DNA from: Tubulanus polymorphus
Lineage: Eukaryota > Animalia > Nemertea
Reading direction: 5' to 3'
Length of the DNA stretch: 64,000 bases
Assembly: GCF_964204645.1 (NCBI RefSeq)
Contig: NC_134027.1
Coordinates: 558,001-622,000, forward strand
The position numbers and the translations under genes are program-made. This document shows positions 2,636-57,500 of this stretch, one piece after another; within the stretch, counting starts at the first letter, position 1; every line of letters begins with the position of its first letter. The notes beneath the pieces are model-generated. The model was not told the origin of the DNA. It did no database searches and saw nothing but the letters and a program-made list of their open reading frames with translations.

Positions 2636-2790
2636 CACTTACTTCCGCGTTTGTGATTTGCATACAAGTAGTTTGAATGTTAAATGTATGAAGCCGCGTG
2701 TTGATTGGTTGAGGTCAGTGCGGTTTACTGAACGATGACCAGCTGTCAGCTGATCGAATCATTCGTTTCACAGACATTACGACGTAAGTA
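2636..2790 (+). promoter_or_regulatory. Candidate promoter and short non-coding first exon (copy B ~46432-46586)
   Basis: ETS-like ACTTCCG ~2641, octamer ATTTGCAT 2656-2663, reverse CCAAT (ATTGG) 2704-2708, Inr-like TCATTC 2759-2764, strong donor GAC|GTAAGT at 2784. The ATG exon begins with an acceptor at 5149, so an upstream exon is required. Confidence 0.5.
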
Positions 2791-5081: not shown

Positions 5082-5152
5082 TCACTGAACCAGAATAAGA
5101 CTGACTGATATATTTTCAAATGATTTAATATTTTTACTTGTTTTTCTAGAAT

Positions 5153-8100
5153 ATGCCAAAAGCTGTAAGAAAAACACGGGGCGCGGGCCCCTCACATTCG
5201 AGCCCGTATAATAAAGTAAGTACAAATTTACTGCTTCCATGCTTATTTATTCATCCCATACTTAGTATTTTGTACCCCTGGGTCCAGTTTCACAAAAAGG
5301 ATTAACGCCTAAATTGATTTAAGATAAACTGAATTAATGAAGAAATTAAATCGATTTAAGAGTTAAACCTGTTTGTGAAACTGGGCCCTGAATTGCATCT
5401 AGAATGAAAAAAAAGAAAAAAAAATATTGAAAATAACGTTGGTGAAATATTTCTGGATCTTTCTGGATTTCTGCTCAATGCATCGTTTAGTAAAATATCG
5501 ATATTCTCTAAAAGTAAAGATATAAGAATAAAAATATTGTATTGAATCGTGATTAGTTACTGTATGCGCTGCTAGTTGTTGCCCAACCCATAGCCTCATT
5601 TCTCTCCATTCTAAATTTGCATTGTTTAACATTGCCTGGTTGCTATGGAAACTATTTATTTAAGTTTCTTTGTGGTATCCATGGCAACAGTAACGTTTAG
5701 GTAGTGGCACCAATTATGGGTCCCAACGTTCCCATGGCGATACATGAGAACATTTATCCTATTTTTGACCTTCATGACGTAAGATGGTAGTGAGTCGATG
5801 ACGTCATTTTCGTCTCGCCACTAATGAAAAAAAAAAGAAATGAAAAAAAAGGAAAAAATCGTTAGAATTACGTTTATGAAATTTTTCTGGATCGGCTAAA
5901 TGTATTGTTCCATTAAATATCGACATTCTCTAAAATCATAGGCATCAATATCAAAATGATGATACAGCAGACTCCGCTTAACTCTGTTCTATTTGGACCA
6001 TTAATTAACCGAATACCGACTTTTTAAATTTTAGGATTTTAACTTTAAGGATCAGAAAATGTGTATGCAATATCAACCGGGTACCGAGTAGGGTGGCCGA
6101 GTCTACTGTAGTCTGCTGCCCCCTCGAATCCATTACCTTATTATCTCTCAATTTGCATTGTTTGACCTCGTCTGGTTGCTATGGAAACTATTAAGTTATA
6201 TCAGGAACGGTTTTTTCGTGGTAACCAGTGGCAACATTTAACAGGCGTGTCCGTCCTAGAGATAAACTGTCTGATTTCACAGCCACATCCGTCCTGGAGA
6301 TAAACTGTTAGATAAACTCTGATTTCGCGTCCGTCCTATTTCTTGTCATTGTATGAATATGTTTTCTCTTTTATAGAGAACTCAACAACAACAACAACAA
6401 CAGCAACAACAACAACAACAACAGCAGCAACAGCAACAAAAATTTGATATTTCTATGTCTGGGATTGACGTAAGTTATCGTAAACGCCTGTTTGAAGTCA
6501 TCATTCTTGAGCTTGAAACCGAAATTTATATATATAGAATATTAAACCCTGCTTCTGCTACTGACAGGTAATGTCCGTCATACATTACTGCATCGTCAAA
6601 TCTATACCAGGGTGCACCCAGCCTGATCGTTCGCATCATCACATGCAAAGGGCTGATTATTTTGGAACCCAGTTTTTATCAGCTGGAACATTCTGCACAT
6701 TCGACCATATTGATTGATAGCCCGTTATAGACGAGTGGAGAAAAACTGGAAAACCAGTTCAATGTTACCTCATGGTAAACATAAGGGAATTTCAATGAGT
6801 TTAACTCACATTTACAGAGTTTTAACGAGGTTAGACTGAATTAACCATTATTCCATCAATGGTGTGTTCTGTCCATCAAGGCTCCTCAGACGCACCGAGC
6901 AGTCAAATGCAGCAGTAGCGCGAGGGTCGGGTGTTCTCGTGTGGGCAGACGGTCCGAACCCCAAAACCATTTACTTACACTATACAAATCAGATCAGGTT
7001 TTTAACATTGTCTTTGATTGTATTTTCAGTTTCTGCCGACAACGCCGCCAAGCGGTACTTCTACGCCGGTAAGTGATAACTATTTTCTAATAAATCACGC
7101 TTATTTCAATTTGTAATTTGAAAATAGAGGGCAGTAGCTGTTTTGCATAAATTATGCTAATTAGGAATAAAATCAAATTCGATTAAGTCTCATCATCGTA
7201 GAAGTCATATATTAATGATGCTATCTCTACAGTTGTCATTTAAATTAAGTGTTATATTTACTACTTAATTTGCTTCATGACCCAAAAGCCTCTACTATAT
7301 AACTACTGGTTTTGTTCTAATCTTGGAGAATTTGCTGCAAAATTAACTTATCATTCGTTAATCAGTTTTTATCGAAAACCCGAATCAGTGATACATGCAT
7401 TCATGAATATCCATCTAATATTTTGTTTTATTTTATCTTTACAGGATTTATCACCGATACAGCACGTGGACGTAAGACATTAAACATTGATCTTGAATTT
7501 TAAGTTCAAACTAATTTATTTTTTATCTCACTCGGGACTATAGTTATTGCGTTCACTTTGCGTCCAGTTGTCTCGGCTAGTTTTTGATTTATCGTGTTGA
7601 TAATTGGTTTATATACTCAAACTACTCAAACTCAAAATATTGGCACAATTGGAATTAAGATGGCGGACTTGTATGACCATTTTTTTCCCCGGCAAAATCA
7701 GCGCTTTAGGATCAATTCTGTTGTTGTTATATTACATTGAAATCAGAGTTTAATATATATCAGTATAGAGCAGGTTTTTGCTCTAGTTATAAATAAAGTT
7801 ATAAATAATCTCATGACATGTTCTGTATATGTGTAGTGAGTTTCAATGTCTTTGGTTCCTTTTAAACCAGGGGGAGTTAAATTTGAAAATGTCAGATCGT
7901 CGAGCATTTCAGACCACTTCCAAAGTGGGTCCCTGCACCCCTAGTTATACCGTTAATATTTTAATAATACATTAATATTTTTATTTGATAGAATATATTG
8001 ATATACCATACATTGATATCGGTCTTGTAATTGGATCAACAACCATGAGATCAAAACACAGCAAATATGAACCTGCTGTGAATCAATAGATTTGTGATAA

Positions 8101-11100
8101 ATGTAATGAAATTGTTATTTTTCATATTGACTTTTTGAGTTAAGGGTCTGTTGTATAAGAGTATTTGGTCTCGCGTGTCAATGTATGATATCAATCTGTT
8201 GTATTTCCTCGTTCCAATGTTTAAAAGGTGTTCGTCACCTTATATTAATATCCTCCGTGTTTAAAAACCTGTGCGTATTACTTTTACCGTTAGATGGCGC
8301 CATAAGTGTGATATTTGATATATGGGATACCCGCAAAACCAGCTATTCCACCAGATGGCGCAACGAGTAGTAGGTCGTTCGTTGTCAAAATTAGTTCATT
8401 TTCGATGAACTTTGAACTGGTTTGAAGAAGAAATACTTTCATTCTTCTACTCTGATATCGGTTTAGTTTTCATTAATAATTGATTCATTTAAGAGAACAA
8501 TTCATTCAGATTTAATTGAAATGTACAAGAAAATCGAACGCAGACGACCAACTATTTACTAGCGACACCTGGTGGATCCTCGCCTGCCATAAGTGGAATC
8601 CTCGATTGCCACAGTAAGACTGCGGGTATCCCATTGTTTGGCGTGTGATAAAGTAAAGTTAGAAAACGAATGTTTAACTTTGTTGTGAAATGAAAGCGTT
8701 TTGGAGATTTTTAAACCGATCAAATCAATATTTTGATATTACGCTTGAAACCCTTCCCACTCATATTCTGCTTACTAAGTATATATTCTAGTTTCCGTGG
8801 AAATCATGGTGAGTGGCGCCATCTATACAGTGGAGTTAGCTTTATAAATCGAGTATGATTCGACAAGTGGCTCCATCTATTCCCTAATACTGAAGCGAGG
8901 TAACCAGCAGCGCCCTCATATACAGGAAATGAACGCCTATCAAGTTTAACAATGCACGGTGTATTGACCACAGCGACCGGTGATAATTATATCAATGTTG
9001 ATTAGCTATTGCCATAGACAGGTCCGTAGCGTTTGACTGGACCAGAACGGGGCCCCCTAACCAAAACAAATTTTGAAAACGTGCCCAGATAAATTGCCTC
9101 TGGGAGATTGATTAACGAGGTTTTGATTGAATGAACAAATTTTAATATTTGTAAGTTTAACATTTCTGTTTTTAATTTTTCTTTGTAAGGAACTGAATTT
9201 TCGAACCCCCCTGAACCGCTTCAAGCTACGTTCCTGATATAGTGCTAGCTATACCTGAATACTTTTCTCTTATTGAAATTGTCTAAAAAACCAGCACCTT
9301 GAACTAATGAACGTCATAATGAAAATGTTTAAAAATTCAACCGTTAACGAATTTGACTAATGTATCTTTTTTATTTTCATTTCTAGCGTCAGTTTGCCTC
9401 AGAGGCTGGGTCGCCGTCGCTTAATGTAAGTATCAGTGACGCCCTCAATCTCACATGCCTCACTTCCCTCCTAATGTAACCATTTTTATGAAATTCCTCA
9501 AGAAAATATATACTGATAATCTTAGAATACACGTTTTTGTACCCAGACCCCTTCATTCTACTGAACTACCGTGTAATCAGTACCTGTTGTGTTCATTTTC
9601 TGTTGCATTGATTTATATATTATTTCTATTTATAGTTGTCAAACAACAGCAGCAGCAGCAGCGCACCCCTCCCGCCGGAGACGCCTCCCGACCTGCAAGC
9701 AAGAAGTAAGTTCAGTCTTCAAATACAATTTCAACGCATTCAATTTTTTGTATGGCGTTAAAACGGTTAAAGTTGTGACTAGTTTTCATAACTCCGTGAC
9801 GTCAGGTGTGAGACAAAATACAATATCATATTTCCATCGAGTACCGGACCCTTTCCTATGTTTTTTGCCAATTTGGATTGAATGATCGCCAGCGGTTTTT
9901 CTATACGACCCGGCTCTGCTGTATTGCATTTAGCCATCCTTTTTCTTGGCGTTTTTTATAAGAAGGTGTTTGATTTTGTCTCTAAGGGATTTAGGAATTT
10001 AAGAGACACTTGTACTCTCTATGCAGTGAGTTTGTTCTGTTTTTGTTCCCTCGTGAATTTTATTTTTGTTTGAATCAAATCAAATCAGTGCATCTTTCTT
10101 GAATTGCGTGTATGTTATAATATTATGTAAGTTATAACGTTAAAATATCTGTTATATTTAAACCGAATATTTAATTGTTGTATTTTGAATGCGATAATGC
10201 CGCTCCCTGCTAAAGTCCAGCGTCGTCGTCGTGAGGGATGCGGTCATCTGTTCGGGCCCTGATTACGTTCTGTGTTCATCCTGTTTGGCTACATCGGGCG
10301 TTATATGAGTTAATCCTTCCTGGACTTGCGGATTGTGGTCGGAAGATCTATGGGTTCGGGCCGAGAAGTCCCAGAAACAGAAAGTACAGTTTCTGTCGAT
10401 GTACCGATTGATGTCTCTATTTCAGAAAGTAACAGCGGTCGCCAGCTGTACTAGCAAGGTTGGTTTCCCAACTCCATTCTCTGAGGAGGATCGCTGGTTC
10501 TCTAGTGCCGGTCAGTCACCAGTCAATCAATGGTTCAGCTGGCATCCCAGGGTACTGAACATCCAGTCCGGTCCGGTCCAGGCATCACTGGGAACTGTAC
10601 ATCCAGTCTGGTCCGGTCCAGGCATCACCGGGTACTGAACATCTGGTCCGGTCCGGCAGCTTTGAGCACCAGTCCATTCCAGACATCACTGGGTACTGAA
10701 CATCCAGTCCGGTCCGGTCCAGGCATCACCGGGTACTGAACATCCAGTCCGGTCCGGTCCAGGCATCACTGGGAACTGTACATCCAGTCCGGTCCGGTCC
10801 AGGCATCACTGGCAACTGTACATCCAGTCCGGTCCGGTCCAGGCATCACTGGGTACTGAACATCTGGTCCGGTCCGGCAGCTTCGAGCACCAGTCCATTC
10901 CAGGCATCACCTGGTACTGAACATCCAGTCCGGTCCGGTCCAGGCATCACTGGGAACTGTACATCCAGTCCGGTCCGGTCCAGGCATCACTGGGAACTGT
11001 ACATCCAGTCCGGTCCGGTCCAGGCATCACTGGGAACTGTACATCCAGTCTGGTCCGGTCCAGGCATCACCGGGTACTGAACATCCAGTCCCGTCCGGTC

Positions 11101-14100
11101 CAAGCATCACTGGGTACTGAACATCCAGTCTGGTCCGGTCCAGGCATCACTGGGTACTGAACATCCAGTCTGGTCTGGTCCAGGCATCACTGGGAACTGT
11201 ACATCCAGTCCGGTCCGGTCCAGGCATCATCAGGTACTGAACATCCGGTCTGGTCCGGTCCAGGCATCACCGGGAACTGAACATCTGGTCCGGTCCGGTC
11301 CAGGCATCACTGGGAACTGTACATCCAGTCTGGTCCGGTCCAGGCATCATCAGGTACTGAACATCCGGTCTGGTCCGGCCAAGGCATCATCAGGTACTGA
11401 ACATCCGGTCTGGTCCGGGCGGCCTGGCATCAATGTTTCGAATTTGAAACATAGTTATTATGGCTCTAGGTTTGGTAGAGGGCGCTATTCTACCAGACGC
11501 AGGAGTAAGGTCACCTTCACTGATATCGAGGATGGATCGAGAGATTATGATTGATTCTGTAGGAACCATCATCATTCATCAGTTCACGTCGAGGGACCGT
11601 TTAGGAAGTTCATGTCTTTCACGTCGAGGGACCGTTTAGGAAGTTCACGTCTTTCACGTCTAGGGACCGTTTAGGAAGTTCACGTCTTTCACGTCGAGGG
11701 ACCGTTTAGGAAGTTCACGTCTTTCACGTCGTGGGACCGTTTAGGAAGTTCACGTCTTTCACGTCGAGGGACCGTTTAGGAAGTTCACGTCTTTCACGTC
11801 GAGGGACCGTTTAGGAAGTTCATGTCTTTCACGTCGAGGGACCGTTTAGGAAGTTCATGTCTTTCACGTTGAGGGACCGTTTAGGAAGTTCACGTCTTTC
11901 ACGTCGAGGGACCGTTTAGGAAGTTCATCTCTTTCACGTCGAGGGACCGTTTAGGAAGTTCACGTCTTTCACGTCGAGGGACCGTTTAGGAAGTTCATGT
12001 CTTTCACGTCGAGGGACCCTTTAGGAAGTTTATGTCTTTCACATCGAGGGACCGTTTAGGAAGTCGTCACAATAATCGGAATTTCCGTGATTTCGAAAGT
12101 AAGATGTTATTGTCATTGTAAGCTACCGCAGTTACAGGTAAGCCTATTCTTGATTGCCCGGTTAGAAGTTCAGTTATTCGGAATTCTGACTCTGAATTTC
12201 TGAGGGGTAGCATCTGATTTCAACGAGGATCTAGTTCCTGCAGCAATAAGCTTCGGGTTGCCGCTCACAACGGAAGCTCGTAACACGGTTAGCCATGCCT
12301 GCAGGGGATATGCTATTTTTTACCCCTCAGCCATAGGACGCAAGGGGTAAAAAATCACTTATGTCCGGACGGGTGGGCTGTTTGTTTTTGACATATACAG
12401 GTCATCCAAGATGGCCGCCACAGCCATTGCAATGTGTTAAATAGCCATTTGAAGCTTGTTATCGCTCTACAGACTTAAGTTTTTCATTGATTTTCTTGTG
12501 ACTTGGTTTGTTTGTTTGAGGTGTGAGATGGATGAGCCCTATTATTTTTGACATATATAGGTCATCCAAGATGGCCGCCACGGTTGTTTTAATGTGTGAA
12601 ATAGCTATATTTTGGAGCTTGTTTTCCACTGTACAATCTACAGTTTTATACTGATTTTCTTATCACGTGCTATGTGGATTGAAGGCATAAGGATCGATGA
12701 ACTCTACTGTGTTTGATGTGTGTAGGCCACCACAGTTATATCAGTGTCTTGAATAGCCGATTTGGAGCTTGTTACTGCTCTAAGATGTAGAAGCTTAGAG
12801 GATTATAATTTTATTCATACTTGTACTGTGGTTTATTTATGGTGGTCAGAGGATGAGCCCTATTACAATTTTGCATTCTCTACTTGACTCACTGGTCAAG
12901 GGTTAATATCTAGTTTGTTAAATGTGGAGAAACTCGTGCTAAGTCCTCGGCAGGTCCCCATGTCGGTGAATCACCACCACCCCCACCCCCCGGACTTTGA
13001 TCTCAATATTTTGCGTGAATCGTCAGCAGTTTCAAGAGAATGGGCTCGATTAGGTGTGGAACAATTGGAATCCTCGATTGCCACAGTCGAACCTAGAGTA
13101 TTAAGAGCTCAATTAGGTTCGTCTTTGCGTCTCTTCTCCGGTTGGAGTGCTCCAGTTTTGACCAAACGGAGGAATATTCGAGAGGTGCAGATTCAAGTCA
13201 ACCATGCGGACTCCGTGAAGTACTGGTCCAGCTCCAGCTCCGACAGCTGAAGGTTCAGCTCCGGCTCCGACAGCTAAAGGTTCAGCTCTGGCTCCGGCAG
13301 CTCAAGGTCCGGCTCCGGCAGCTCAAGGTCCAGCTCTGGCTCCGGCCGCTCAAGGTTCAGCTCCGGCTCCAGCTCCGGCCGCTCAAGGTTCAGCCCGAAC
13401 TCACACAATGCCATCTCAAGCATCTTACTTTCTCAAGCGGCTACTGGTGGTTGGAGAACAAGTGCACAGCTCCAACATTCTCGTGCCCCTTCTGGTCAGA
13501 ATAATTCTAATTCATATCACTAAAAGGAGCTCTTCCTCTCGGAGAAACTCAAAATGAATGCTCGGGGCCAGTGAGAGGTTGTCTGCAGCAGGCAGCCACT
13601 GGTCCGTCGGTCCCGGGTCGTATCACGGAGGCTACTGTCTTCAATTCTGAACACCTCTCGACATGCGCCCGAAAGCAGATCAGGAGACACTAATCTCGTC
13701 AGCTCTCAAAGATCTGGCCAAAAAGAGAGCAATAGAACCAGTACGCGACGAAGCCACATCCGGCTGGTTTTCATGAAAATTTATGCTCCTGAAAACCACA
13801 GGGCGTCGATGGACTGTCATTCCTCGAGCGGCACCTGGATATCCCGAGGCTTCCGATGACTAAAACAGGGAGGTAATTCAAGGTCTCCGTCGAGGTTAAT
13901 GGGCGGCTGCATTGGACCTGAAAGATGCATATTTTCAGGTTCCTGTTCACCCGAAATCCTGTCAATTTTACAGAATAAAAGTTGAAAGGCTGCCAGTTCC
14001 AGTTCAGGTCTCTTCCAATCGGCCTCAGTACAGCCCACGCCCTGGGTATTTACCAGCTTGGGTCAAGTCCAGAAGGTACATTACAGTCCAGGGCTGGGTT

Positions 14101-17100
14101 TCATAGATATGGAAGAAAAATAATTCCAGGGAACATTTTGAAATTTGTCAGTTATAACCATGGTTTCTCATTGTTAGTATGGTGGTTGTTACCAAGATTG
14201 AGGATTTACCCCTAGGGATAACTTTGATACTCAGTCTATGAAACCGGGTCCTGGAGTATTTGTCTGTTGGTTTACCTCGACGACTGGTTACTAGTACCAA
14301 ACTCGACTATAGAATGTCAGGAGGCGAGGACCGCTGTCGTAGACTTAGTTCACCAGTTCCGCGTAAACTAAGTAAAATCTCACTTGATGCCATCCCAACA
14401 GTTCACATCTCCGGATCAGCACGGTCTTTCCGTCCATGGCTCGAGTAGCCAAACTTCAAGAAGCGTAGTTACCACAAACGAGAGGACAGCTAGTTATCGG
14501 TGACGCCTGTGGCTAAATGCAATACCGCAGTGCCAGGGATCGTATCTCTGGCTATCTACACATTCAGAGAATATTAACTAAAACCATAGGAAAGGGTCAA
14601 GCACTACTCCGAAAAAAAAACTAATTTTATTTCCAAAAAATTATGATATTATATGGATTGCATGCTGTGTGGAAGAAGTTTTCAAAATTATTTAGGAGCT
14701 TATTATAATTTGAATGCATGAATTGAGAGCAATTTGAAATGTATTGATATCCGAAAGTGTCTCCATTGACTTCACTCATTCACCTGATGAAGCTTCTATA
14801 CATTAGTACCCAAAGCTTGTGTGTCAAATAAACTAGTTACACGTCCTATAAAGTACTACTTGTCTCGTTATATATTCTAAACCCCAGTTAACAATTCCAG
14901 TAAGTCAGGTTTAGGGAATAGATATTTAAACCTTGAGATGATACCGATGTGATACAATTCCAGTAAGTCAGGTTTAGGGAATAGATATTTAAACCTTGAG
15001 ATGATACCGATGTGATACAATTCCAGTAAGTCAGGTTTAGGGAATAGATATTTAAACCTTGAGATGATACCGATGTGATACAATTCCAGTAAGTCAGGTT
15101 TAGGGAATAGATATTTAAACCTTGAGATGATACCGATGTGATACAATTCCAGTAAGTCAGGTTTAGGGAATAGATATTTAAACCTTCAGATGATACCGAT
15201 GTGATACAATTCCAGTAAGTCAGGTTTAGGGAATAGATATTTAAACCTTGAGATGATACCGATGTGATACAATTCCAGTAAGTCAGGTTTAGGGAATAGA
15301 TATTTAAACCTTCAGATGAAACCGATGTGATACAATTCCAGTAAGTCAAGTTTAGGGAATAGATATTTAAACCTTCAGATGATACCGATGTGATACAATT
15401 CCAGTAAGTCAGGTTTAGGGAATAGATATTTAAACCTTGAGATGATACCGATGTGATACAATTCCAGTAAGTCAGGTTTAGGGAATAGATATTTAAACCT
15501 TGAGATTAAACCGATGTGATACAATTCCAGTAAGTTAGGTTTAGGGAATAGATATTTAAACCTTGAGATGATACCGATGTAATACAATTCCAGTAAGTCA
15601 GGTTTATTAAGGAATAGATATTTAAACCTTGAGATTAAACCGATGTGATACAATTCCAGTAAGTCAGGTTTAGGGAATAGATATTTAAACCTTGAGATGA
15701 TACCGATGTGATACAATTCCAGTAAGTCAGGTTTAGGGAATAGATATTTAAACCTTGAGATTAAACCGATGTAATACAATTCCAGTAAGTCAGGTTTAGG
15801 GAATAGATATTTAAACCTTGAGATTAAACCGATGTGATACAATTCCAGTAAGTCAGGTTTAGGGAATAGATATTTAAACCTTGAGATTAAACCGATGTAA
15901 TACAATTCCAGTAAGTCAGGTTTAGGGAATAGATATTTAAACCTTGAGATGATACCGATGAATTTAGCAATTTTGAATGAATTAAACCAATATGAGATTT
16001 CGATCCTAAGAATATTGGAAGCTTGTGTTTAACGTTACTAAATAGTAATATTATATAAAGCTAGAAGGACACGAGGGTATCCATTTTTTTGCCCGATCGC
16101 AACGATTAAATTTGCCGGTGAATTTATACGCCCGATACGAGTGGGTACCGATCTATCTATAAATCGGCCGTCACGGTGATTTCGTCGCCCGCCAACATTA
16201 AACATGTTCTATATTTACGCCGGTGTTCGGGTCACTTGTTAATTCGCTCGTCTTGTCGGCAAGCTTAAAAAGATTTAGAAAAAACTACATATTCTTCTTC
16301 CTGAATAAACTGGATTCATCTGGGTTCAGTTTCATGAGACACAGTTCAAACTGCTCTTGAATTTGAGTTTGTAATTAATGTATGTGATTATAATGAATTG
16401 TATTTTTTGTTTTACAGCACTGATATTTAGATTGAGTCGTGCGTTCCGGCGGGAGGAGTTCGTACGCTTATTTTTACCGGAGTGTAAGTAGTTTAACTAT
16501 TTTCATACAATATCATTTAGTGTGACGTGTGTTACTGATCCAGGAATTTTTCCAAGAGGGGGTTCATAAAAATCCTGACTTAAATCTCTAATGATAGCCG
16601 GGGCCTATACGGCATATTGTTTGGCCAAACATAAGATCATATGGTACCGGTTTTTTGGCTTGTCTCGAGTAAGCATTTACATTCCTTCAAGAAAACGAAT
16701 TTTTAAAATTTTTGGTAGCTGATCAGCGGAGTCACGACCCCTGAAACCCTCCCTGGATCCGCGCCTGTGATATCTCCTCAAAATCTAATAAAAACATTCA
16801 ACAAATTAATGCTATAATGACGATATGTAGCCTGTTATATCTGTCTATTTGAATGCATTTGCATAAAGAAATAGTTGCGGAATTATCAACTGCAAATAAC
16901 AGTGTAACCCTAGTGGGTCTTAAGAGACGGCCAGAGCCTTTTTATAGGTTGTTATGGCTCACAACCTGACTTGAGTTAGCTGTACGGACCTGTCAGATTA
17001 GTTACTTCTAGAAGTTATGTTAGTCACATTTTCTGACTATATTCTGGAAAACAGTGGAAGCTTGTATCCACCCCTAGATTAGAACCAATCAGAATAGAAC

Positions 17101-19566
17101 CAATCAGAATAGAACCAATCAGAATAAAACCAATCAGAATAGAACCAATTAGAATAAAACCAATCAGAATAGAACCAATCAGAATAAAACCAATCAGAAT
17201 AAAACTAATCAGAATAGAACCAATCAGAATAGAACCAATCAGAATAGAACCAATCAGAATAAAACCAATCAGAATAGAACCAATCAGAATAAAACCAATC
17301 AGAATAAAACTAATCAGAATAGAACCAATCAGAATAAAACCAATCAGAATAAAACCAATCAGAATAAAAGCAATAAATAGCGTTTTTTTCTCGAGTAGTT
17401 GCCGAAGAAGCATAAAAATTTGATTCAATTTCATTCAGATTTAAACAAACAAATCGAATTTCATTTCATTCAGCGCAAACTTCAAATCTAATTAAAATTT
17501 TGTTCAGTATGAATAAGTTGCAAATCATTGAGAGGAAAAAATAATTAATTGTGTTACTTAAAAAAATCACAATTGTGCTGTGTTTATCAAAACAGGAGAC
17601 CACAGGACCTTTGGTCCTCTAGTATTCTTTTCCTAGTTATTCCAAAAACACTAAAACAGTCCAATCAGCGATGGCTGCCAGACCAACACGATTACATTGA
17701 AATCAAACTTAAGTAACATCAGGCGCCCCCTGTTGGAATAATATTCATAGCCGTAGCATCGAAACCATTCGACTTGTTGTTTAATGTATTTCTCTCTATT
17801 TTTATTTTACAGTTCTGCAAGTTTTAGAAGACTGCCCCTTTGAGGATTTGGTGGGGGAATTCAAAAGAAACTTGGTTCCCGATAGGATATTACCACCACC
17901 GGTTAATCCTATGTCGCCCGCTGCTGCCCCTCCCCCACGTCCATTAAATTCGCCTCAGCAGCGGCCTGTCAGACAGCCGCCCCCGGCCGCCACTCGTTCG
18001 TCAGACAGAGTCCGGGGACGGCTGTTTGAAGGAGATCTGACGGAGGTAAGAATCTTTATTTGTTTTCATATTTTATTCAGGATATCAGTTGAAGTTCAGC
18101 AAATAAATTACCAGACCTGTAAACAGAAGAGTAGTCATAAATTTCCATTTGCGGGTAAAACCCCATAGTCGAAAACCTTCGGTTATTGATCTATATCTGC
18201 TTAAGACCAATGGTTGTACACACGAGTGCGAAAACTTATCGCTCAAACTTTGATTGTATCCATGGTAACGCGTACAGTATACTATGCGTGACTTACCGTT
18301 TCCTATCACTGGAATACAATACTGTTTTAGACCATGAGCGCCATCTGCGGCGGTCATAACGGACTGAGTGGTGATTGGCTGAAATGCTCGTCTACCGTGG
18401 TGACGATTATTCGGTGTTACACGTGCAGCAGACACGTCTCTGAATATCTAACATTTGATTGTTGTAACTCATCGGGAAAAATATGTTTATGAGTCGATTT
18501 TTTGTCGAAATTTTGTTCGGCAGAAAATTGGCTGCGTACGTCAAGAAGGCGGCTGATATTTGTATCGTGTGACCCCTCGTCCCGGTAATATGCCGACCCA
18601 CGTACACCTGAGACCAGTTGCATAGTCAGAGCTTAGAATTAAGACCGTTTTAAGACCAACTTAGTTCTATAGCCAATCTAATAACTTAAGACCAGTCTTT
18701 AGATTTAAGACCACTTTTGGACTTAAGTCTTGACCATGGAATCGGCCCCAGATGCTTATTCCGCTGTATTGGATGCTGACGTGCTCGTGTCTTCCAGCAA
18801 TGTTGTTATTCACCAAAAATATCATGTTTTGTTCGAATAACACGATTCATCTGAGTCTGGGTTTAACGGATGACACGTTCAAACAGAACTACGAAATCAA
18901 TATCAGAAGTCCTTTTATATTGAAACGGTCCCAGAAGTCCCTGTTATAATGGGTACTTTTTCAAAAAAAGTAACGAGAACTCCGATGGCTTTCCGTATTC
19001 ACCGAACTATTTCTATGAGCGTCACTCGTAGATTTACCGAAACGCCACCTTGTGGCACGATATCCTAACTACGTATAGGTGTTTTATTTGCTGAATCGCT
19101 GGTTTCTCATTCTGATTTTTTATGTAGTGTTTAATTTTATACTAAACAAATTTTTCACTTTTTCTCTTTACAGACACGACCACCGCCAAAAAAAACTAGA
19201 ACAAAAAGGAAAAGAAAAGTTGCGGTCGTCGTGGCTCCGCAGGGAGGAGGAGCAAGAGTGGTCCCGGCGGATGGTGCGGCTGACGAAGGTAATCGGGAGG
19301 AAGGGGAGGGGATAAATAGGAAGCGGCCGAGGAGGGATGGTGGTGGGGCTGGGGATGGTGCGGGTCCTGCTCCTCCTGCTCCTCCATCCGTATCTCGGGC
19401 GGTCACTCGTTCACTCGCCAAAAAGCTGGCGAGTGAACGAGTGGCCCGAGAGGTAGAGGTGGTGGCCCGACATACGGATGGAATGTGGGAGGAGCGGCTT
19501 CGTTCGGGGACAATTCCGGATTTGTTAACTGATTTAAAAAATATTCTTTCAGTGAAGGGATATTAG
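5153..19566 (+). CDS. Spliced gene, copy A, ~340-aa putative nuclear protein of unknown family. Coding exons 5153-5215, 6377-6469, 7030-7068, 7445-7471, 9387-9425, 9636-9705, 16418-16483, 17813-18045, 19174-19566
   Basis: Every exon has a pyrimidine tract plus YAG acceptor, and all eight donors are GTAAG. Intron phases (0,0,0,0,0,1,1,0) join into one open frame: MPKAVRKTRGAGPSHSSPYNK/RTQ19KFDISMSGID/FLPTTPPSGTSTP/DLSPIQHVD/RQFASEAGSPSLN/LSNNSSSSSAPLPPETPPDLQAR/TLIFRLSRAFRREEFVRLFLPE/FLQVLEDCPFEDLVGEFKRNLVPDRILPPP...RVRGRLFEGDLTE/TRPPPKKTRTKRKRKVAVVVAPQGGG...SVKGY*. Differences from copy B preserve frame and are largely synonymous or conservative. Confidence 0.88.
5281..5387. mobile_element. 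MITE, PIF/Harbinger-like (copy B ~50435-50541)
   Basis: TIRs GGTCCAGTTTCACAAA / TTTGTGAAACTGGGCC, flanked by CTG on both sides (CWG target duplication). Confidence 0.75.
8322..8634. mobile_element. MITE-like inverted-repeat element
   Basis: ATGGGATACCCGCA ... TGCGGGTATCCCAT termini, plus inner inverted pair CCACCAGATGGCGC / GCGACACCTGGTGG. Confidence 0.65.
10541..11430. repeat. 40-bp minisatellite inside the DIRS gag region
   Basis: Unit GGCATCACTGGGAACTGTACATCCAGTCCGGTCCGGTCCA, ~21 units. Confidence 0.96.
11583..12064. repeat. 35-bp minisatellite, ~14 units (copy B 57765-58281)
   Basis: Unit TTCACGTCGAGGGACCGTTTAGGAAGTTCA(T/C)GTCT. Confidence 0.96.
12315..12915 (+). mobile_element. Non-autonomous interspersed repeat (Helentron/HINE-like) nested in the DIRS element
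   Basis: T-run start, short palindrome TTTTTACCCCT..AGGGGTAAAAA and internal ~170-bp degenerate repeats containing CAAGATGGCCGCC. Confidence 0.5.
13225..13395. repeat. ~27-bp repeat CAGCTCCGGCTCCGGCAGCTCAAGGTT (copy B expanded, 59448-59752)
   Basis: Visible tandem units at the end of the gag-like region. Confidence 0.9.
14091..14251. mobile_element. Harbinger-like MITE interrupting the RT
   Basis: Imperfect TIRs GGGCTGGGTTTCATAGA / TCTATGAAACCGGGTCC with CAG/CTG flanks. It lies between the LSTA and YLDD motifs. Confidence 0.6.
14892..15960. repeat. 63-bp minisatellite, ~17 units (copy B 61259-61884, ~10 units)
   Basis: Unit ACAATTCCAGTAAGTCAGGTTTAGGGAATAGATATTTAAACCTTGAGATGATACCGATGTGAT. 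Confidence 0.97.
17081..17369. repeat. 15-bp repeat A(G/A)AACCAATCAGAAT, ~19 units
   Basis: Visible tandem units. Only 2 units at the copy-B site (63664-63694). Confidence 0.96.
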
Positions 19567-20048
19567 GTGCCTTGAACGCATGAGTCGTTCATGCGCGCCT
19601 AATATGCCTTCACTGAAAGAAAATCAACTATAACATGTACCACATATTTTTTGATTTAATTTTAGTCCAATTCCACAATTATTTCGGCTTTCAATAGTGT
19701 CTTCAATTCTTTAAAGCCCAAAGCACCTTTTTGACTCAACATCCAGTATGAAGGTGGTCGGGAATTGGGCCTGTTTTCTTCGATTTTTGTATCCCGCCCA
19801 GCATACTGGTTGTTGACTCGAAAAGGTGCTCGCTCTGGGAGCTTATCAAAGGCAGGTGATGGGAAAGGTGCCATCACACACTCTCCTTTGATAAGTTTCC
19901 TAGAGTGTCACGGGCTTTAACGGATTGAATTCACTATAATACCAATTTTCCAAAATCAATTTAATTTCTTTCAGGCCATTCTTTTTCCATGTTTTTCTGG
20001 TACATGTTATGGTTGATTTCCATTTTCGAAAATCCGGAATTGAAGCCG
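19495..20048. mobile_element. Fold-back/MITE-like insertion overlapping the stop codon
   Basis: Inverted pairs CAATTCCGGATTT / AAATCCGGAATTG and AAATCAACTATAACATGTACCA / TGGTACATGTTATGGTTGATTT. Internal hairpin at 19544-19621. Confidence 0.6.
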
Positions 20049-21042: not shown

Positions 21043-21294
21043 AGAAATTAAAGTTCTAAGTTTGTTGTTAGATTCTATTCAAAGAACGTTGTAAAGTTCT
21101 TAATTTGTCGTAAAAAACGTTTGAAAAAAAGAACTTCTTAAAGTTCTCAATCTGCCGTAAAATGCAATTGAAAAGATTATAACTCACATGAAAATTAAAA
21201 CGATAAAATAATTGATAAATAATCATTAATAAAAATTGAACTTTGGTCTCGCAATGTTTCCCCGTTATGCATTTTTTACTCGTCGTCAAACATC

Positions 21295-21962
21295 GGCAGC
21301 TCATCGTCGATACTCGCAGCTCGATACACAACAGCAGTTCGTCGTCGATACACACCAGCAGTTCGATACACGCCAGCAGCTCGATACACACCAGCAGCTC
21401 GTCGTCGATACACACCAGCAGTTCGTCGTCGATACACACCAGCAGTTCGTCGTCGATACAGACCAGCAGTTCGTCGTCGATACACACCAGCAGTTCGTTG
21501 TCGATACAAACCAGCAGTTCGATACTCACCAACAGCTCGATACACGCCAGCAGTTCGTCGTCGATACACACCAGCAGTTCGTCGTCGATACACACCAGCA
21601 GTTCGTCGTCGATACACACCAGCAGTTAGTCATCGATACACACCAGCAGTTCGTCGTCGATACACACCAGCAGCTCGATACACACCAGCAGCTCGATACT
21701 CACCAGCAGTTCGTCGTCGATACACACCAGCAGTTCGATACACACCAGCAGCTCGATACACACCAGCAGTTCGTCGACACTCACCAGCAGCTCGTCGTCG
21801 ATACACACCAGCAGTTCGTTGTCGATACACACCAGCATTTCGATACTCACCAGCAGCTCGATACACACCAGCAGCTCGTCGATACTCACCAGCAGCTCGA
21901 TACTCACCAGCAGCTCGTCGTCGATACACACCAGCAGCTCGATACACACCAGCAGCTTGATA
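21295..21962. repeat. 18/21/24-bp minisatellite GATACACACCAGCAG(T/C)TC(GTC)0-2
   Basis: About 30 visible units. Confidence 0.95.
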
Positions 21963-33270: not shown

Positions 33271-33519
33271 GCCCCACGTGCTGAGTGGATGATAGACATC
33301 ATGAGACTCATCAAATTTTGAGAAATTAGTTTGATTGAAAAATTAATCTAAGCAATGTCTGTTTTTGCATTTCAGAGGTTGATGTTACCTGAACATGCAG
33401 TTCTGAGCTGACTCCATATCAGGTGAGCATGTATGCAGTGAAATTGGATAAAATCATGAGATTTTCCAAGAGCTCTTATTAGTGGAATTTTATCTCTAAT
33501 AGCCCTTGATCCAAGTGCT

Positions 33520-50235: not shown

Positions 50236-50306
50236 TCACTGAACCAGAATAAGACTGACTGATATATTTTCAAATGATTTAATATTTTTACTTGTTTTTC
50301 TAGAAG

Positions 50307-51552
50307 ATGCCAAAAGCTATTAAAAAAACGCGGGGCGCGGGCCCCTCACATTCGAGCCCGTATAATAAAGTAAGTACAAATTTACTGCTTCCATGCTTAT
50401 TTATTCATCCAATACTTAGTATTTTGTACCCCTGGGTCCAGTTTCACAAAAAGGATTAACGCCTAAATCGATTTAAGATAAACTGAATTAATGAAGAAAT
50501 TAAATCGATTTAAGAGTTAAACCTGTTTGTGAAACTGGGCCCTGAATTGCATCTAGAATGAAAAATAAGAAAAAAAAATATTGAAAATAACGTTGGTGAA
50601 ATATTTCTGGATCTTTCTGGATTTCTGCTCAATGCATCGTTTAGTAAAATATCGATATTCTCTAAAAGTAAAGATATAAGAATAAAAATATTGTATTGAA
50701 TCGTGATTAGTTACTGTATGCGCTGCTAGTTGTTGCCCAACCCATAGCCTCATTTCTCTCCATTCTAAATTTGCATTGTTTAACATTGCCTGGTTGCTAT
50801 GGAAACTATTTATTTAAGTTTCTTTGTGGTATCCATGGCAACAGTAACGTTTAGGTAGTGGCACCAATTATGGGTCCCAACGTTCCCATGGCGATACATG
50901 AGAACATTTATCCTATTTTTGACCTTCATGACGTAAGATGGTGGTGAGTCGATGACGTCATTTTCGTCTCACCACTAATGAAAAAAAAAAAATGAAATGA
51001 AAAAAAAGGAAAAAATGGTTAGAATTACGTTTATAAAATTTTTCTGGATCGGCTAAATGTATTGTTCCATTAAATATCGACATTCTCTAAAATCATAGGC
51101 ATCAATATCAAAATGATGATACAGCAGACTCCGCTTAACTCTGTTCTATTTGGACCATTAATTAACCGAATACCGACTTTTTAAATTTTAGGATTTTAAC
51201 TTTAAGGATCAGAAAATGTGTATGCAATATCAACCGGGTACCGAGTAGGGTGGCCGAGTCTACTGTAGTCTGCTGCCCCCTCGAATCCATTACCTTATTA
51301 TCTCTCAATTTGCATTGTTTGACCTCGTCTGGTTGCTATGGAAACTATTTAGTTATATCAGGAACGGTTTTTTCGAGGTAACCAGTGGCAACATTTAACA
51401 GGCGTGTCCGTCCTAGAGATAAACTGTCTGATTTCACAGCCACATCCGTCCTGGAGATAAACTGTTAGATAAACTCTGATTTCGCGTCCGTCCTATTTCT
51501 TGTCATTGTATGAATATGTTTTCTCTTTTATAGGGTACAGCGCAGCAACAGC

Positions 51553-51583
<31 letters not shown>

Positions 51584-54500
51584 GCAACAAAAATTTGATA
51601 TTTCCATGTCTGGGATTGACGTAAGTTATCGTAAACGCCTGTTTGAAGTCATCATTCTTGAGCTTGAAACCGAAATTTATATATATAGAATATTAAACCC
51701 TGCTTCTGCTACTGACAGGTAATGTCCGTCATACATTACTGCATCGTCAAATCTATACCAGGGTGCACCCAGCCTGATCGTTCGCATCATCACATGCAAA
51801 GGGCTGATTATTTTGGAACCCAGTTTTTATCAGCTGGAACATTCTGCACATTCGACCATATTGATTGATAGCCCGTTATAGACGAGTGGAGAAAAACTGG
51901 AAAACCAGTTCAATGTTACCTCATGGTAAACATAAGGGAATTTCAATGAGTTTAACTCACATTTACAGAGTTTTAACGAGGTTAGACTGATTAACCATTA
52001 TTCCATCAATGGTGTGTTCTGTCCATCAAGGCTCCTCAGACGCACCGAGCAGTCAAATGCAGCAGTAGCACGAGGGTCGGGTGTTCTCGTGTGGGCAGAC
52101 GGTCCGAACCCCAAAACCATTTACTTACACTATACAAATCAGATCAGGTTTTTAACATTGTCTTTGATTGTATTTTCAGTTTCTGCCGACAACGCCGACA
52201 ACGCCGCCAAGCGGTACTTCTACGCCGGTAAGTGATAACTATTTTCTAATAAATCACGCTTATTTCAATTTGTAATTTAAAAATAGAGGGCAGTAGCTGT
52301 TTTGCATAAATTATGCTAATTAGGAATAAATTCAAATTCGATTAAGTCTCATCATCGTAGAAGTCATATATTAATGATGCTATCTCTACAGTTGTCATTT
52401 GAATTAAGTGTTATATTTACTACTTAATTTGCTTCATGACCCAAAAGCCTCTACTATATAACTACTGGTTTTGTTCTAATCTTGGAGAATTTGCTGCAAA
52501 ATTAACTTATCATTCGTTAATCAGTTTTTATTGAAAACCTGAATCAGTGATACATGCATTCATGAATATCCATCTAATATTTTGTTTTATTTTATCTTTA
52601 CAGAACATATCACCGATACAGCACGTGGACGTAAGACATTAAACATTGATCTTGAATTTTAAGTTCAAACTAATTTATTTTTTATCTCACTCGGGACTAT
52701 AGTTATTGCGTTCACTTTGCGTCCAGTTGTCTCGGCTAGTTTTTGATTTATCGTGTTGATAATTGGTTTATATACTCAAACTACTCAAACTCAAAATATT
52801 GGCACAATTGGAATTAAGATGGCGGACTTGTATGACCATTTTTTTCCCCGGCAAAATCAGCGCTTTAGGATCAATTCTGTTGTTGTTATATTACATTGAA
52901 ATCAGAGTTTAATATATATCAGTATAGAGCAGGTTTTTGCTCTAGTTATAAATAAAGTTATAAATAATCTCATGACATGTTCTGTATATGTGTAGTGAGT
53001 TTCAATGTCTTTGGTTCCTTTTAAACCAGGGGGAGTTAAATTTGAAAATGTCAGATCGTCGAGCATTTCAGACCACTTCCAAAGTGGGTCCCTGCACCCC
53101 TAGTTATACCGTTAATATTTTAATAATACATTAATATTTTTATTTGATAGAATATATTGATATACCATACATTGATATCGGTCTTGTAATTGGATCAACA
53201 ACCATGAGATCAAAACACAGCAAATATGAACCTGCTGTGAATCAATAGATTTGTGATAAATGTAATGAAATTGTTATTTTTCATATTGACTTTTTGAGTT
53301 AAGGGTCTGTTGTATAAGAGTATTTGGTCTCGCGTGTCAATGTATGATATCAATCTGTTGTATTTCCTCGTTCCAATGTTTAAAAGGTGTTCGTCACCTT
53401 ATATTAATATCCTCCGTGTTTAAAAACCTGTGCGTATTACTTTTACCGTTAGATGGCGCCATAAGTGTGATATTTGATATATGGGATACCCGCAAAACCA
53501 GCTATTCCACCAGATGGCGCAACGAGTAGTAGGTCGTTCGTTGTCAAAATTAGTTCATTTTCAATGAACTTTGAACTGGTTTGAAGAAGAAATACTTTCA
53601 TTCTTCTACTCTGATATCGGTTTAGTTTTCATTAATAATTGATTCATTTAAGAGAACAATTCATTCAGATTTAATTGAAATGTACAAGAAAATCGAACGC
53701 AGACGACCAACTATTTACTAGCGACACCTGGTGGATCCTCGCATGCCATAAGTGGAATCCTCGATTGCCACAGTAAGACTGCGGGTATCCCATTGTTTGG
53801 CGTGTGATAAAGTAAAGTTAGAAAACGAATGTTTAACTTTGTTGTGAAATGAAAGCGTTTTGGAGATTTTTAAACCGATCAAATCAATATTTTGATATTA
53901 CGCTTGAAACCCTTCCCACTCATATTCTGCTTACTAAGTATATATTCTAGTTTCCGTGGAAATCATGGTGAGTGGCGCCATCTATACAGTGGAGTTAGCT
54001 TTATAAATCGAGTATGATTCGACAAGTGGCTCCATCTATTCCCTAATACTGAAGCGAGGTAACCAGCAGCGCCCTCATATACAGGAAATGAACGCCTATC
54101 AAGTTCAACAATGCACGGTGTATTGACCACCGCGACCGGTGATAATTATATCAATGTTGATTAGCTATTGCCATAGACAGGTCCGTAGCGTTTGACTGGA
54201 CCAGAACGGGGTCTCCTAACCAAAACAAATTTTGAAAACGTGCCCAGATAAATTGCCTCTGGGAGATTGATTAACGAGGTTTTGATTGAATGAACAAATT
54301 TTAATATTTGTAAGTTTAACATTTCTGTTTTTAATTTTTCTTTGTAAGGAACTGAATTTTCGAACCCCCCTGAACCGCTTCAAGCTACGTTCCTGATATA
54401 GTGCTAGCTATACCTGAATACTTTTCTCTTATTGAAATTGTCTAAAAAACCAGCACCTTGAACTAATGAACGTCATAATGAAAATGTTTAAAAATTCAAC

Positions 54501-57500
54501 CGTTAATGAATTTGACTAATGTATTTTTTTTATTTTCATTTCTAGCGTCAGTTTGCCTCAGAGGCTACGTCGCCGTCGCTTAATGTAAGTATCAGTGACG
54601 CCCTCAATCTCACATGCCTCACTTCCCTCCTAATGTAACCATTTTTATGAAATTCCTCAAGAAAATATATACTGATAATCTTAGAATACACGTTTTTGTA
54701 CCCAGACCCCTTCATTCTACTGAACTACCGTGTAATCAGTACCTGTTGTGTTCATTTTCTGTTGCATTGATTTATATATTATTTCTATTTATAGTTGTCA
54801 AACAACAGCAGCAGCAGCAGCGCACCCCTCCCGCCGGAGACGCCTCCCGACTTGCAAGCAAGAAGTAAGTTCAGTCTTCAAATACAATTTCAACGCATTC
54901 AATTTTTTGTATGGCGTTAAAACGGTTAAAGTTGTGACTAGTTTTCATAACTCCGTGACGTCAGGTGTGAGACAAAATACAATATCATATTTCCATCGAG
55001 TACCGGACCCTTTCCTATGTTTTTTGCCAATTTGGATTGAATGATCGCCAGCGGTTTTTCTATACGACCCGGCTCTGCTGTATTGCATTTAGCCATCCTT
55101 TTTCTTGGCGTTTTTTATAAGAAGGTGTTTGATTTTGTCTCTAAGGGATTTAGGAATTTAAGAGACACTTGTACTCTCTATGCAGTGAGTTTGTTCTGTT
55201 TTTGTTCCCTCGTGAATTTTATTTTTGTTTGAATCAAATCAAATCAGTGCATCTTTCTTGAATTGCGTGTATGTTATAATATTATGTAAGTTATAACGTT
55301 AAAATATCTGTTATATTTAAACCGAATATTTAATTGTTGTATTTTGAATGCGATAATGCCGCTCCCTGCTAAAGTCCAGCGTCGTCGTGAGGGATGCGGT
55401 CATCTGTTCGGGCCCTGATTACGTTCTGTGTTCATCCTGTTTGGCTACATCGGGCGTTATATGAGTTAATCCTTCCTGGACTTGCGGATTGTGGTCGGAA
55501 GATCTATGGGTTCGGGCCGAGAAGTCCCAGAAACAGAAAGTACAGTTTCTGTCGATGTACCGATTGATGTCTCTATTTCAGAAAGTAACAGCGGTCGCCA
55601 GCTGTACTAGCAAGGTTGGTTTCCCAACTCCATTCTCTGAGGAGGATCGCTGGTTCTCTAGTGCCGGTCAGTCACCAGTCAATCAATGGTTCAGCTGGTT
55701 CACTGTCCGAATGGTATTTCCCAGATATCGCACAGGAACTCGGGTTCGGTCCGGGCTACTCCGAGCAATGGTCCGGTCCAGGCATCACCGGGAACTGTAC
55801 ATCCAGTCCGGTGCGGTCACCTCTGAGCACCGGTCCAGTCCAGGCATCACCAGTTACTGAACATCTTGTCCGGTCCGGGCGGCCTCAAGCTACGGTTGGG
55901 TCCAGGCATCACAGGGTACTGAACATCTGGTCCCGTCCAGGCATCACCGGGTACTGAACATCCAGTCCGGTCCGGTCCAGGCATCACTGGGAACTGTACA
56001 TCCAGTCCGGTCCGGTCCAGGCATCACTGGGAACTGTACATCCAGTCCGGTCCGGTCCAGGCATCACTGGGAACTGTACATCCAGTCTGGTCTGGTCCAG
56101 GCATCACCGGGTACTGAACATCTGGTCCGGTCCGGCAGCTTTGAGCACCAGTCCATTCCAGGCATCACCGGGTACTGAACATCCAGTCCGGTCCGGTCCA
56201 GGCATCACTGGGAACTGTACATCCAGTCCGGTCCGGTCCAGGCATCACTGGGTACTGAACATCTGGTCCAGTCCGGCAGCTTTGAGCACCAGTCCATTCC
56301 AGGCATCACTGGGTACTGAACATCCAGTCCGGTCCAGGCATCACCGGGTACTGAACATCCAGTCCGGTCCGGTCCAGGCATCACCGGGTACTGTACATCC
56401 AGTCCGGTCCGGTCCAGGCATCACTGGGAACTGTACATCCAGTCCGGTCCGGTCCAGGCATCACCGGGTACTGAACATCCAGTCCGGTCCGGTCCAGGCA
56501 TCACTGGGTACTGAACATCCAGTCCGGTCCGGTCCAGGCATCACTGGGAACTGTACATCCAGTCCGGTCCGGTCCAGGCATCACTGGGAACTGTACATCC
56601 AGTCCGGTCCGCTCCAGGCATCACCGGGTACTGAACATCCAGTCCGGTCCGGTCCAGGCATCACTGGGTACTGAACATCCAGTCTGGTCCGGTCCAGGCA
56701 TCACTGGAAACTGTACATCCAGTCCGGTCCGGTCCAGGCATCACTGGGAACTGTACATCCAGTCCGGTCCGGTCCAGGCATCACCGGGTACTGAACATCT
56801 GGTTCGGTCCAGGCATCACCGGGTACTGAACATCCAGTCCGGTCCGGTCCAGGCATCACTGGGAACTGTACATCCAGTCCGGTCCGGTCCAGGCATCACT
56901 GGGAACTGTACATCCAGTCAGGTCCGGTCCAGGCATCACTGGGAACTGTACATCCAGTCCGGTCCGGTCCAGGCATCACCGGGTACTGAACATCTGGTCG
57001 GTCCAGGCATCACCGGGTACTGAACATCCAGTCCGGTCCGGTCCAGGCATCACCGGGTACTGAACATCTGGTCGGTCCAGGTATCACCGGGTACTGAACA
57101 TCCAGTCCGGTCCGGTCCAGGCATCACTGGGTACTGAACATCCAGTCTGGTCCGGTCCAGGCATCACTGGGTACTGAACATCCAGTCTGGTCCGGTCCAG
57201 GCATCACTGGGAACTGTACATCCAGTCCGGTCCGGTCCAGGCATCACTGGGAACTGAACATCCAGTCCGGTCCGGTCCAGGCATCACCGGGTACTGAACA
57301 TCCAGTCCGGTCTGGTCCAGGCATCACTGGGTGCTGAACATCCAGTCTGGTCCGGTCCAGGCATCACTGGGAACTGTACATCCAGTCCGGTCCGGTCCGG
57401 TCCAGGCATCACTGGGAACTGTACATCCAGTCCGGTCCGGCCAAGGCATCACTGGGTGCTGAACATCCAGTCTGGTCCGGTCCAGGCATCACTGGGTACT

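Follow-up and report, generated by a model that had tools for sequence, protein, structure and literature searches.

A nine-exon gene with short symmetric exons

We analyzed a stretch of 64,000 nucleotides from the nemertean Tubulanus polymorphus (assembly GCF_964204645.1, contig NC_134027.1, positions 558,001 to 622,000; referred to here as the window, whose numbering is used throughout) that harbors on its plus strand a gene for a probably nuclear protein, together with a second copy of much of this gene. In silico splicing of the nine coding exons of the first copy (copy A) yields a reading frame of 340 codons with no internal stop. All eight introns begin with a GTAAG donor, and every acceptor is T-rich and ends in AG. 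Since introns 1-5 and 8 are in phase 0 and introns 6 and 7 in phase 1, exons 2-5 and also exon 7 (phase 1-1) are symmetric. A preliminary description of this locus had proposed five consecutive phase-0 introns and symmetric exons of 93, 39, 27, and 39 nt, and we reproduced this exon chain exactly from the sequence. About half of all animal introns are in phase 0; under that assumption, the chance of finding five phase-0 introns in succession is about 2-3%, a value that refers to a run chosen post hoc. The same description spoke of a micro-exon gene, a label that is overstated, since 27 of the 1023 coding bases (2.6%) reside in exons of 36 nt or less; exons of up to 39 nt account for 10% of the coding sequence.

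When both strands were scanned blindly for strict pairs of acceptor and donor, 17 candidates emerged, all on the plus strand, of which 11 possess an open frame. Ten of these 11 correspond to modeled exons of copy A or copy B, one of them being the acceptor of copy A exon 1 combined with an early donor; exons 3, 6, and 9 of copy A and exons 3, 6, and 7 of copy B were overlooked by the scan. Six candidates were found between positions 5100 and 19600, whereas 200 block shuffles yielded 0.585 on average and never more than 3. As judged by its predicted splicing, copy A is a real, intact nine-exon animal gene.

Coding exon 1 (5150..5215, with the coding part at 5153-5215) carries a basic stretch and the HSSPY match to a nuclear localization signal of the proline-tyrosine type (PY-NLS). 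It is followed by exon 2 (6377..6469; 93 nt, phase 0-0), which encodes a polyglutamine (polyQ) tract, and by exon 3 (7030..7068; 39 nt, but 48 nt in copy B, phase 0-0), which possesses two T-P sites and shows two silent third-position variants in the DNA sequencing runs considered below. A TPxxSP motif that spans the exon 3/4 junction is completed by exon 4 (7445..7471; 27 nt, phase 0-0), exon 5 (9387..9425; 39 nt, phase 0-0) contributes one S-P site, and exon 6 (9636..9705; 70 nt, phase 0-1) a serine run and one T-P site. The first half of an amphipathic core is encoded by exon 7 (16418..16483; 66 nt) and the second half, consisting of one predicted helix, by exon 8 (17813..18045; 233 nt), which also specifies a proline-rich linker, two S-P sites, and the sequence RGRLF. 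Exon 9 (19174..19566; 393 nt), the last coding exon, contains an SV40-like basic cluster, RKRPRR, a low-confidence helical tail with VTRS and RLRSG, and the stop codon.

In both copies the ATG (position 5153 in copy A) lies 3 nt past a strong acceptor, so that the transcript should have a further upstream exon. From its sequence, the GTAAGT at 2784 (46580 in copy B) is likely to be the donor of this exon. The corresponding non-coding first exon of copy A would span 2761..2783 on the plus strand, its 5' end being a guess from a TCATTC that we take to be initiator-like. Upstream of it, at 2654-2708, are an element that we take to be octamer-like (ATTTGCAT, altered in copy B) and what is presumably a reversed CCAAT box. 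Exon 1 of copy A, and of this copy only, contains a second donor (GTAAGA, 5165-5170), the use of which would delete the PY-NLS in frame; at position 5169, about 90% of the depth of one DNA run (X1) has the letter of copy B. In intron 4 of both copies (9190-9240 in copy A), an acceptor-like site precedes an open stretch with a T-P site and no good donor, possibly the trace of a lost small exon.

A second copy that diverges within its exons

Bases 1-17.6 kb of the window recur at 43.7-64 kb, which places copy B about 45 kb further on. Exons 1-7 of copy B, located by alignment of the two copies, occupy 50304..62406 on the plus strand (coding exons at 50307-50369, 51534-51620, 52180-52227, 52604-52630, 54546-54584, 54795-54864, and 62341-62406), and its exons 8 and 9 would fall past the end of the window. 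The gene, previously described as multicopy, is therefore at least duplicated. The two coding indels of copy B, -6 in exon 2 and +9 in exon 3, preserve the frame; the latter is a 9-nt duplication that adds one TP, in agreement with the earlier observation that copy B gains an S/T-P site by duplication.

The two copies were compared through exon 7. They differ at 24 of 5080 sites (0.5%) in the introns around exons 1-6, at 24 of 2807 in an aligned stretch of intron 6, and at 21 of 3204 in the upstream region. Exons 1-6, leaving aside the polyQ tract, differ at 13 of 274 sites (Fisher P 1.5e-8 versus the introns). In exon 7, 14 of the 66 bases are changed (21%), and eight of the ten changed codons are silent; its flanks are free of substitutions over 98 nt on the 5' side (with one 1-nt indel) and 64 nt on the 3' side. 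Nine silent differences fall on 16 silent sites (proportion of silent differences pS 0.56, silent divergence dS about 1.0, amino acid-changing divergence dN 0.11), and this silent divergence exceeds even a background of 7.5% (P 5e-7). Read at the sequence level, these values provide strong evidence that the protein sequence of exon 7 is under purifying selection.

The changes in exon 7 form two patches of about 16 nt each that are separated by an identical middle part, and all eight silent codon changes lie within three codons of the two amino acid changes (permutation P 0.001, post hoc). Exons 1, 2, 4, and 5 possess smaller multi-base patches, each of which holds an amino acid change. The patches of exons 2, 4, and 7 start at the first bases of the exon; in exon 4, codons one and two differ. 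The preliminary description had overlooked this divergence within exons, as well as the upstream exon, the symmetry of exon 7, and a hairpin at the stop codon that is described below.

Variants in other DNA sequencing runs

Three sequencing runs (X1, X2, and X4) were compared with the window over positions 5090-10400; a fourth, X5, gave 0 records. The three runs span the introns without spliced joints and are thus DNA-like, so that they speak neither for nor against expression. Over about 3850 bases, the eight longest pieces of X1 show 48 differences from copy A, and X1 differs from both copies of the window at about 1.2% of the intron sites. Variant shares in X1 were determined for 40 of the 169 difference rows, 36 of them intronic and four exonic. 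Among these 40, the intronic differences amount to at least 95% of the X1 depth in 35 of 36 cases; the exception belongs to a high-copy repeat. Of the four exonic differences, three are mixed (90%, 12%, and 60% of the depth). Such mixing would imply that the sample was pooled or that there are about ten haploid copies. One of the exonic changes corresponds to the Lys of copy B, and the other three are silent. One X1 contig stops at 7444, a single base short of the first difference between copies A and B in exon 4.

One X2 contig continues after exon 3 with 38 other letters, which encode an in-frame SPTTP and end in a GTAAG donor, and then rejoins the window sequence at 6870. The depth at 6870-7047 is raised in X1, X2, and X4. 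This suggests that 6870-7068 represents a tandem repeat of about 220 bp with a diverged copy of exon 3 that carries both an S-P and a T-P site.

Nuclear signals and phosphorylation motifs

The 340-residue product contains the polyQ tract, HSSPY, hydrophobic core, two basic clusters, and eight S/T-P sites that had been noted before. Forty-five percent of the residues in the core (amino acids 111-157) are hydrophobic. Three matches to K[KR]x[KR], the classical nuclear localization pattern, are present at residues 216, 221, and 260. In both copies, HSSPY (residues 15-19) and the basic stretch match the PY-NLS consensus (P 0.13), given in the accessible portion of PMC2408616 as a basic stretch followed by R/H/K-X2-5-PY. 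Consistent with these signals, and with the nuclear location predicted earlier, the protein is probably nuclear. Hydropathy values, taken alone, indicate the absence of a signal peptide, as had been stated: the best 8-residue stretch within the first 40 residues scores -0.77, and the best 19-residue window scores 0.85.

In both copies, Ser/Thr residues at positions 56, 60, 64, and 68 form a ladder, the end of which is the TPxxSP that spans exons 3 and 4. The spacing [ST]xxx[ST]P occurs three times in both copies (P 0.04), and [ST]Pxx[ST]P, the liberal Cdc4 pattern, once per copy (P 0.09 for TPxxSP).

Searches for relatives

Homologues, families, PDB entries, and folds were searched for with single exons as queries. 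In word-index searches, exon 8 confirmed none of 1211 candidates among longer proteins at E<=10, exon 9 none of 7555 at E<=1, and the last 59 residues none of 162 at E<=10. A HMMER search with exon 8 of 1.84 billion representatives gave a single match, to a 52-residue repeat that added up weak stretches, and this was discarded. None of 44 pattern matches in viral contigs could be confirmed, and the ESM Atlas contained no usable match to exons 8 and 9. Per-exon Pfam searches returned sub-threshold entries only (DUF6508, DUF5423, DUF543, LisH_WDR26). Exon 7 alone matched LisH_WDR26 at E 0.15 with 11.9 bits (cut-off 27), a weak match restricted to the first half of the core and the only hint of a family. 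Sequence searches of the PDB yielded designed PPR and helical repeats through repeat summation, which were rejected, and no hit to the start of exon 8. A spacing in the last 25 residues that resembles helix 1 of basic helix-loop-helix (bHLH) proteins by eye was likewise dropped; it has no helix-loop-helix match, lacks a basic region, and is partly hairpin-derived.

Single-sequence AlphaFold models (predicted local distance difference test, pLDDT, 57.5 / 64.3; predicted template modeling score, pTM, 0.23 / 0.17) are too weak to carry an argument; they predict that exon 8 opens with one helix and is otherwise coil, as is exon 9 in its first half, and that the tail is helical. Foldseek found nothing at E<=0.001 for the exon 9 model. 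As previously claimed, the gene thus appears to be lineage-restricted and outside any ordinary conserved family, a status that is provisional: single-exon queries divide the core between exons 7 and 8, exon 7 by itself falls short of the search minimum, and a distant family may have been missed.

Surroundings of the gene

The window has a GC content of about 38%, is animal-like, and is rich in satellites and palindromic elements. We recognized no other coding gene among its 57 stop-to-stop open reading frames of at least 90 residues, read by eye. An origin of the locus from a giant transposon or a virus was rejected, since these frames contain no transposase or viral gene and just a decayed reverse transcriptase is present in intron 6. 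This fragment (13700..14480, plus strand) shows stops and frame changes in a three-frame translation and is presumably DIRS-like, as judged from its motifs. It is also found in intron 6 of copy B, at about 60070-60850, and both copies of the intron contain several minisatellites; the frame adjoining the relic had no phage match.

The last seven codons and the stop codon of copy A sit in one arm of a 78-nt hairpin (19544..19621, no strand assigned; -51.1 kcal/mol, z -10.5) with a near-perfect stem of about 35 bp. It occurs once in the window, and Rfam has no match anywhere in the window, this hairpin included. Its size resembles that of a primary microRNA, and palindromic mobile elements are common in the region; it is likely to be such an element and possibly an RNA precursor. 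The hairpin is followed at about 19622-20020 by another element, which has terminal inverted repeats.

Upstream of copy B and on the same strand, a dozen or so related exon-intron units of 42-104 nt extend over 35289-38059 (perhaps 33376-41467), with acceptors ending in TTTCAG, GTATG donors, and mostly closed in three frames. They may be part of a non-coding transcript of several exons, or of a gene that arose by exon duplication and is now dead. A tandem repeat based on 24 bp at 21223-21985 is open in several frames, one of them Arg/Tyr-rich with a protamine-like composition; it has no Pfam match over the cut-off and is probably a non-coding minisatellite. The window also contains a 600-bp inverted repeat (30157-30754 / 32676-33271; 81% identity, spacing of about 1.9 kb). 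The gene's upstream region was, moreover, duplicated internally at an earlier time (39920-41053 versus 44057-45183; 75-82% identity).

A proposed disordered nuclear adaptor with converted copies

The explanation to which we give an even chance is that the gene encodes a mostly disordered nuclear adaptor, likely to be switched or turned over by proline-directed phosphorylation, whose copies are probably kept alike by gene conversion except for tiny patches that surround amino acid differences within the exons. Signals for importin-alpha and transportin would carry the protein into the nucleus, where the amphipathic core of about 45 residues encoded by exons 7 and 8 may bind a partner protein. 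A proline-directed kinase (mitogen-activated protein kinase, cyclin-dependent kinase [CDK], or similar) would prime the Ser/Thr ladder ending in TPxxSP, GSK3 could then extend its phosphorylation, and the ladder might serve as a degron. Such phosphosites could be gained or lost with the symmetric exons, and their number would be alterable by internal or whole-exon duplication.

With respect to the evolution of the two copies, recent duplication and conversion would have homogenized the introns, while old differences would persist beside selected residues or arrive from older paralogues with unalignable introns. That the exons diverge far more than the introns likely reflects an opsin-type island under gene conversion, at an unusually fine scale, if the predicted exons are taken at face value. 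With patches of this narrowness and with such clean flanks, import of patches from older paralogues, of which only the exons could be aligned, fits the pattern at least as well as islands kept by selection. Micro-conversion of the type known from the major histocompatibility complex (MHC) provides an analogy for such imported patches.

Several observations weigh against this explanation. All exon junctions rest on sequence prediction, and two copies, through exon 7 only, underlie the comparison. Beyond 16548, intron 7 is several percent diverged with long indels, so that exon 7 is situated at the edge of an older block, and splicing constraint may partly lie behind the clean flanks of the exons. 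Not all exons branch in the assembled DNA runs: single unbroken contigs cross exon 5 (X1, X2) and exon 4 (X2), the contig break at exon 2 is accounted for by the polyQ tract, and the loss of rare variants from contigs biases the count of fixed versus mixed differences. The proposed function depends on short motifs that are mostly weak singly (P 0.09 for TPxxSP, 0.13 for the PY-NLS, and 0.27 for RxL); the protein has no match to the more stringent FBXW7 pattern, which demands Pro at +2, and just 5 of 22 matches to the liberal Cdc4 pattern proved functional in PMC8955265.

Alternative explanations

The preliminary description saw in the gene, with its modular phosphosite exons, either a CDK substrate that docks onto cyclins or a Cip/Kip-like regulator of the cell cycle or germline. 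All eight minimal S/T-P sites do lie within the first 185 residues (P 0.03; 0.03-0.05 for the N-terminal part, 0.12 without polyQ), and two relaxed sites have a basic residue within three positions, but there is no significant excess over the whole protein (8 versus 5.7 expected by composition; P 0.19), and full CDK sites of the type [ST]Px[KR] are absent from it, as are a D-box and a KEN box. The sequence RGRLF, previously taken for an RxLF cyclin-docking motif, has Gly at P-2, where the RxL consensus requires Arg or Lys in the available part of PMC12356897, and R.LF has no match. A strict RxLxF does occur in both copies over the exon 6/7 junction (residues 110-114; 108-117 for the docking pattern [RK]xLx{0,1}[FL]), with one amino acid difference between copies A and B within the motif; 27% of shuffles have one, it begins the most amphipathic helix and may be buried, and fewer than 15% of strict matches of this type bind a cyclin according to the same portion of PMC12356897. 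With no CDI family match in per-exon Pfam searches at E up to 1 either, we regard the specific CDK reading as unlikely.

It is rather unlikely that the assembly set two alleles of a single locus side by side as copies A and B, in which case the exon patches would represent an old balanced polymorphism and recombination would have worn down their flanks. The intron difference of 0.5-0.9% and the length changes in tandem repeats are in the range of two haplotypes, and X1 is about 1.2% apart from either copy; however, the mixed shares of the exon variants in X1 (about 10%, 12%, and 60% of the depth) are impossible for one diploid locus unless the sample was pooled, and nothing else in the window matches the roughly 24 kb between the copies.

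We consider it doubtful that the product is a chromatin protein that is tethered to nucleosomes and takes part in a genetic conflict of a germline, selfish, or antiviral kind. The Arg-Ser motifs of its tail would then serve as an arginine anchor (for background, see the excerpt of PMC11445581), and the copies would differ to evade a partner or small-RNA silencing. RLRSG resembles MXLRSG, the chromatin-binding motif of LANA and IL-33 as presented in the accessible part of PMC4958301, but Glu stands in place of its Met, so that MXLRSG itself has no match in the protein. LRSG (residue 319) is found in 1.3% of shuffles and lies between low-confidence predicted helices; [TL]RS occurs three times (P 0.006, post hoc). 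The part of the gene present in the mRNA is densely diverged at silent sites, and the tandem copies are located amid satellites, yet a dN/dS ratio of about 0.1 in exon 7 points to constraint and not to an arms race.

We find it equally doubtful that the gene belongs to a hidden family of nuclear orphans diversifying by exon-limited micro-conversion, with patches of about 3-16 nt from older members or mRNA, and by duplication of symmetric exons, possibly in germline conflict. If this were true, exon-limited micro-conversion would build mosaic phospho-codes and partner-binding helices in an intracellular nuclear protein, in a manner akin to MHC or immunoglobulin templating. When the open-access literature was searched for the divergence pattern seen here in a nuclear orphan, it yielded general papers on conversion only, which does not prove that the pattern is unpublished.

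A decaying or shortened gene, in which a hairpin element took over the true C-terminus and the copies are drifting, is very improbable: the stop and the last seven codons lie in a palindrome of a kind highly repeated in the genome, and other hairpins, one at 5280-5388 and further ones around 8400-8600, reach about 60 times the local depth, but all 16 splice sites and the 340-codon frame of copy A and exons 1-7 of copy B are intact, the indels of copy B preserve the frame, and the variants in the DNA runs are silent or conservative.

Under the preferred explanation of a phospho-switched nuclear adaptor with converted copies, the evolutionary pattern as such is known; what marks the present case is near-saturated silent divergence within patches of about 16 nt with clean flanks. 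Patches this narrow permit a sharp test between islands preserved by selection under DNA conversion and import from older paralogues or cDNA. The comparison of the copies also flags residues (core positions 113 and 128, the start of exon 4, and codons 5-6) for a cheap functional test. An orphan protein under clear purifying selection represents a real unknown, although the significance would be modest if it is merely one further lineage-specific disordered nuclear protein.

Comparison with known systems

Like the schistosome micro-exon genes (MEGs), the T. polymorphus gene has runs of short symmetric exons between long introns and is lineage-restricted and multicopy (PMC5825161, in part). In MEGs, however, about 80% of the coding sequence is distributed over symmetric exons of 6-36 bp, and the products are secreted or membrane-anchored, as far as the consulted portion of PMC5825161 describes them; here, small exons make up 3% of the coding sequence, and the product has nuclear signals and no signal peptide. 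MEGs also generate variant proteins through the skipping of exons, which the symmetric exons of the present gene would permit in frame. With the Cip/Kip proteins p21 and p27 it shares disorder and nuclear location (both predicted here) and an LF dipeptide following basic residues, but RGRLF is without the basic residue at P-2, and exon 8 has no CDI match at E up to 1. The gene belongs to neither of these two classes.

A polyQ tract near the candidate phosphodegron is a likeness to Myc. The pair [ST]Pxx[ST]P, the GSK3 spacing, and the predicted disordered N-terminus are reminiscent of phosphodegron proteins such as c-Myc and cyclin E (substrates of Cdc4/FBXW7), from which the protein differs by the lack of Pro at +2 and by an unrelated exon structure (PMC8955265, in part). 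Single-exon Pfam and PDB searches revealed neither Myc boxes nor a bHLH-zip.

The primate L/M opsin genes are a tandem pair under gene conversion with an exonic peak of divergence, as outlined in the available portion of PMC3924837. The gene studied here likewise has tandem copies tens of kb apart with near-identical introns and an exonic divergence peak around amino acid differences. In contrast to the opsins, as that portion describes them, its peaks measure about 16 nt, two of them lie within one 66-nt exon with smaller ones in exons 1, 2, 4, and 5, the silent sites are near saturation, and the product is an orphan; the likeness derives from two copies in one species. The cross-species test applied to the opsins looks for exon variants that are nearer to orthologues elsewhere than to the paralogue, with the reverse for introns; for the present gene, the DNA runs give a hint within the species. 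The GOT1p1/GOT1p2 genes of Tigriopus, another marine invertebrate, also exhibit exonic islands of divergence amid converted sequence, and rare conversion produces mosaic alleles, but these genes are intronless, encode a conserved enzyme, and have far wider islands (PMC3728101, in part). By analogy, the gene would resemble a motif-driven disordered nuclear regulator in its working and the L/M opsin pair, at a finer scale, in its evolution.

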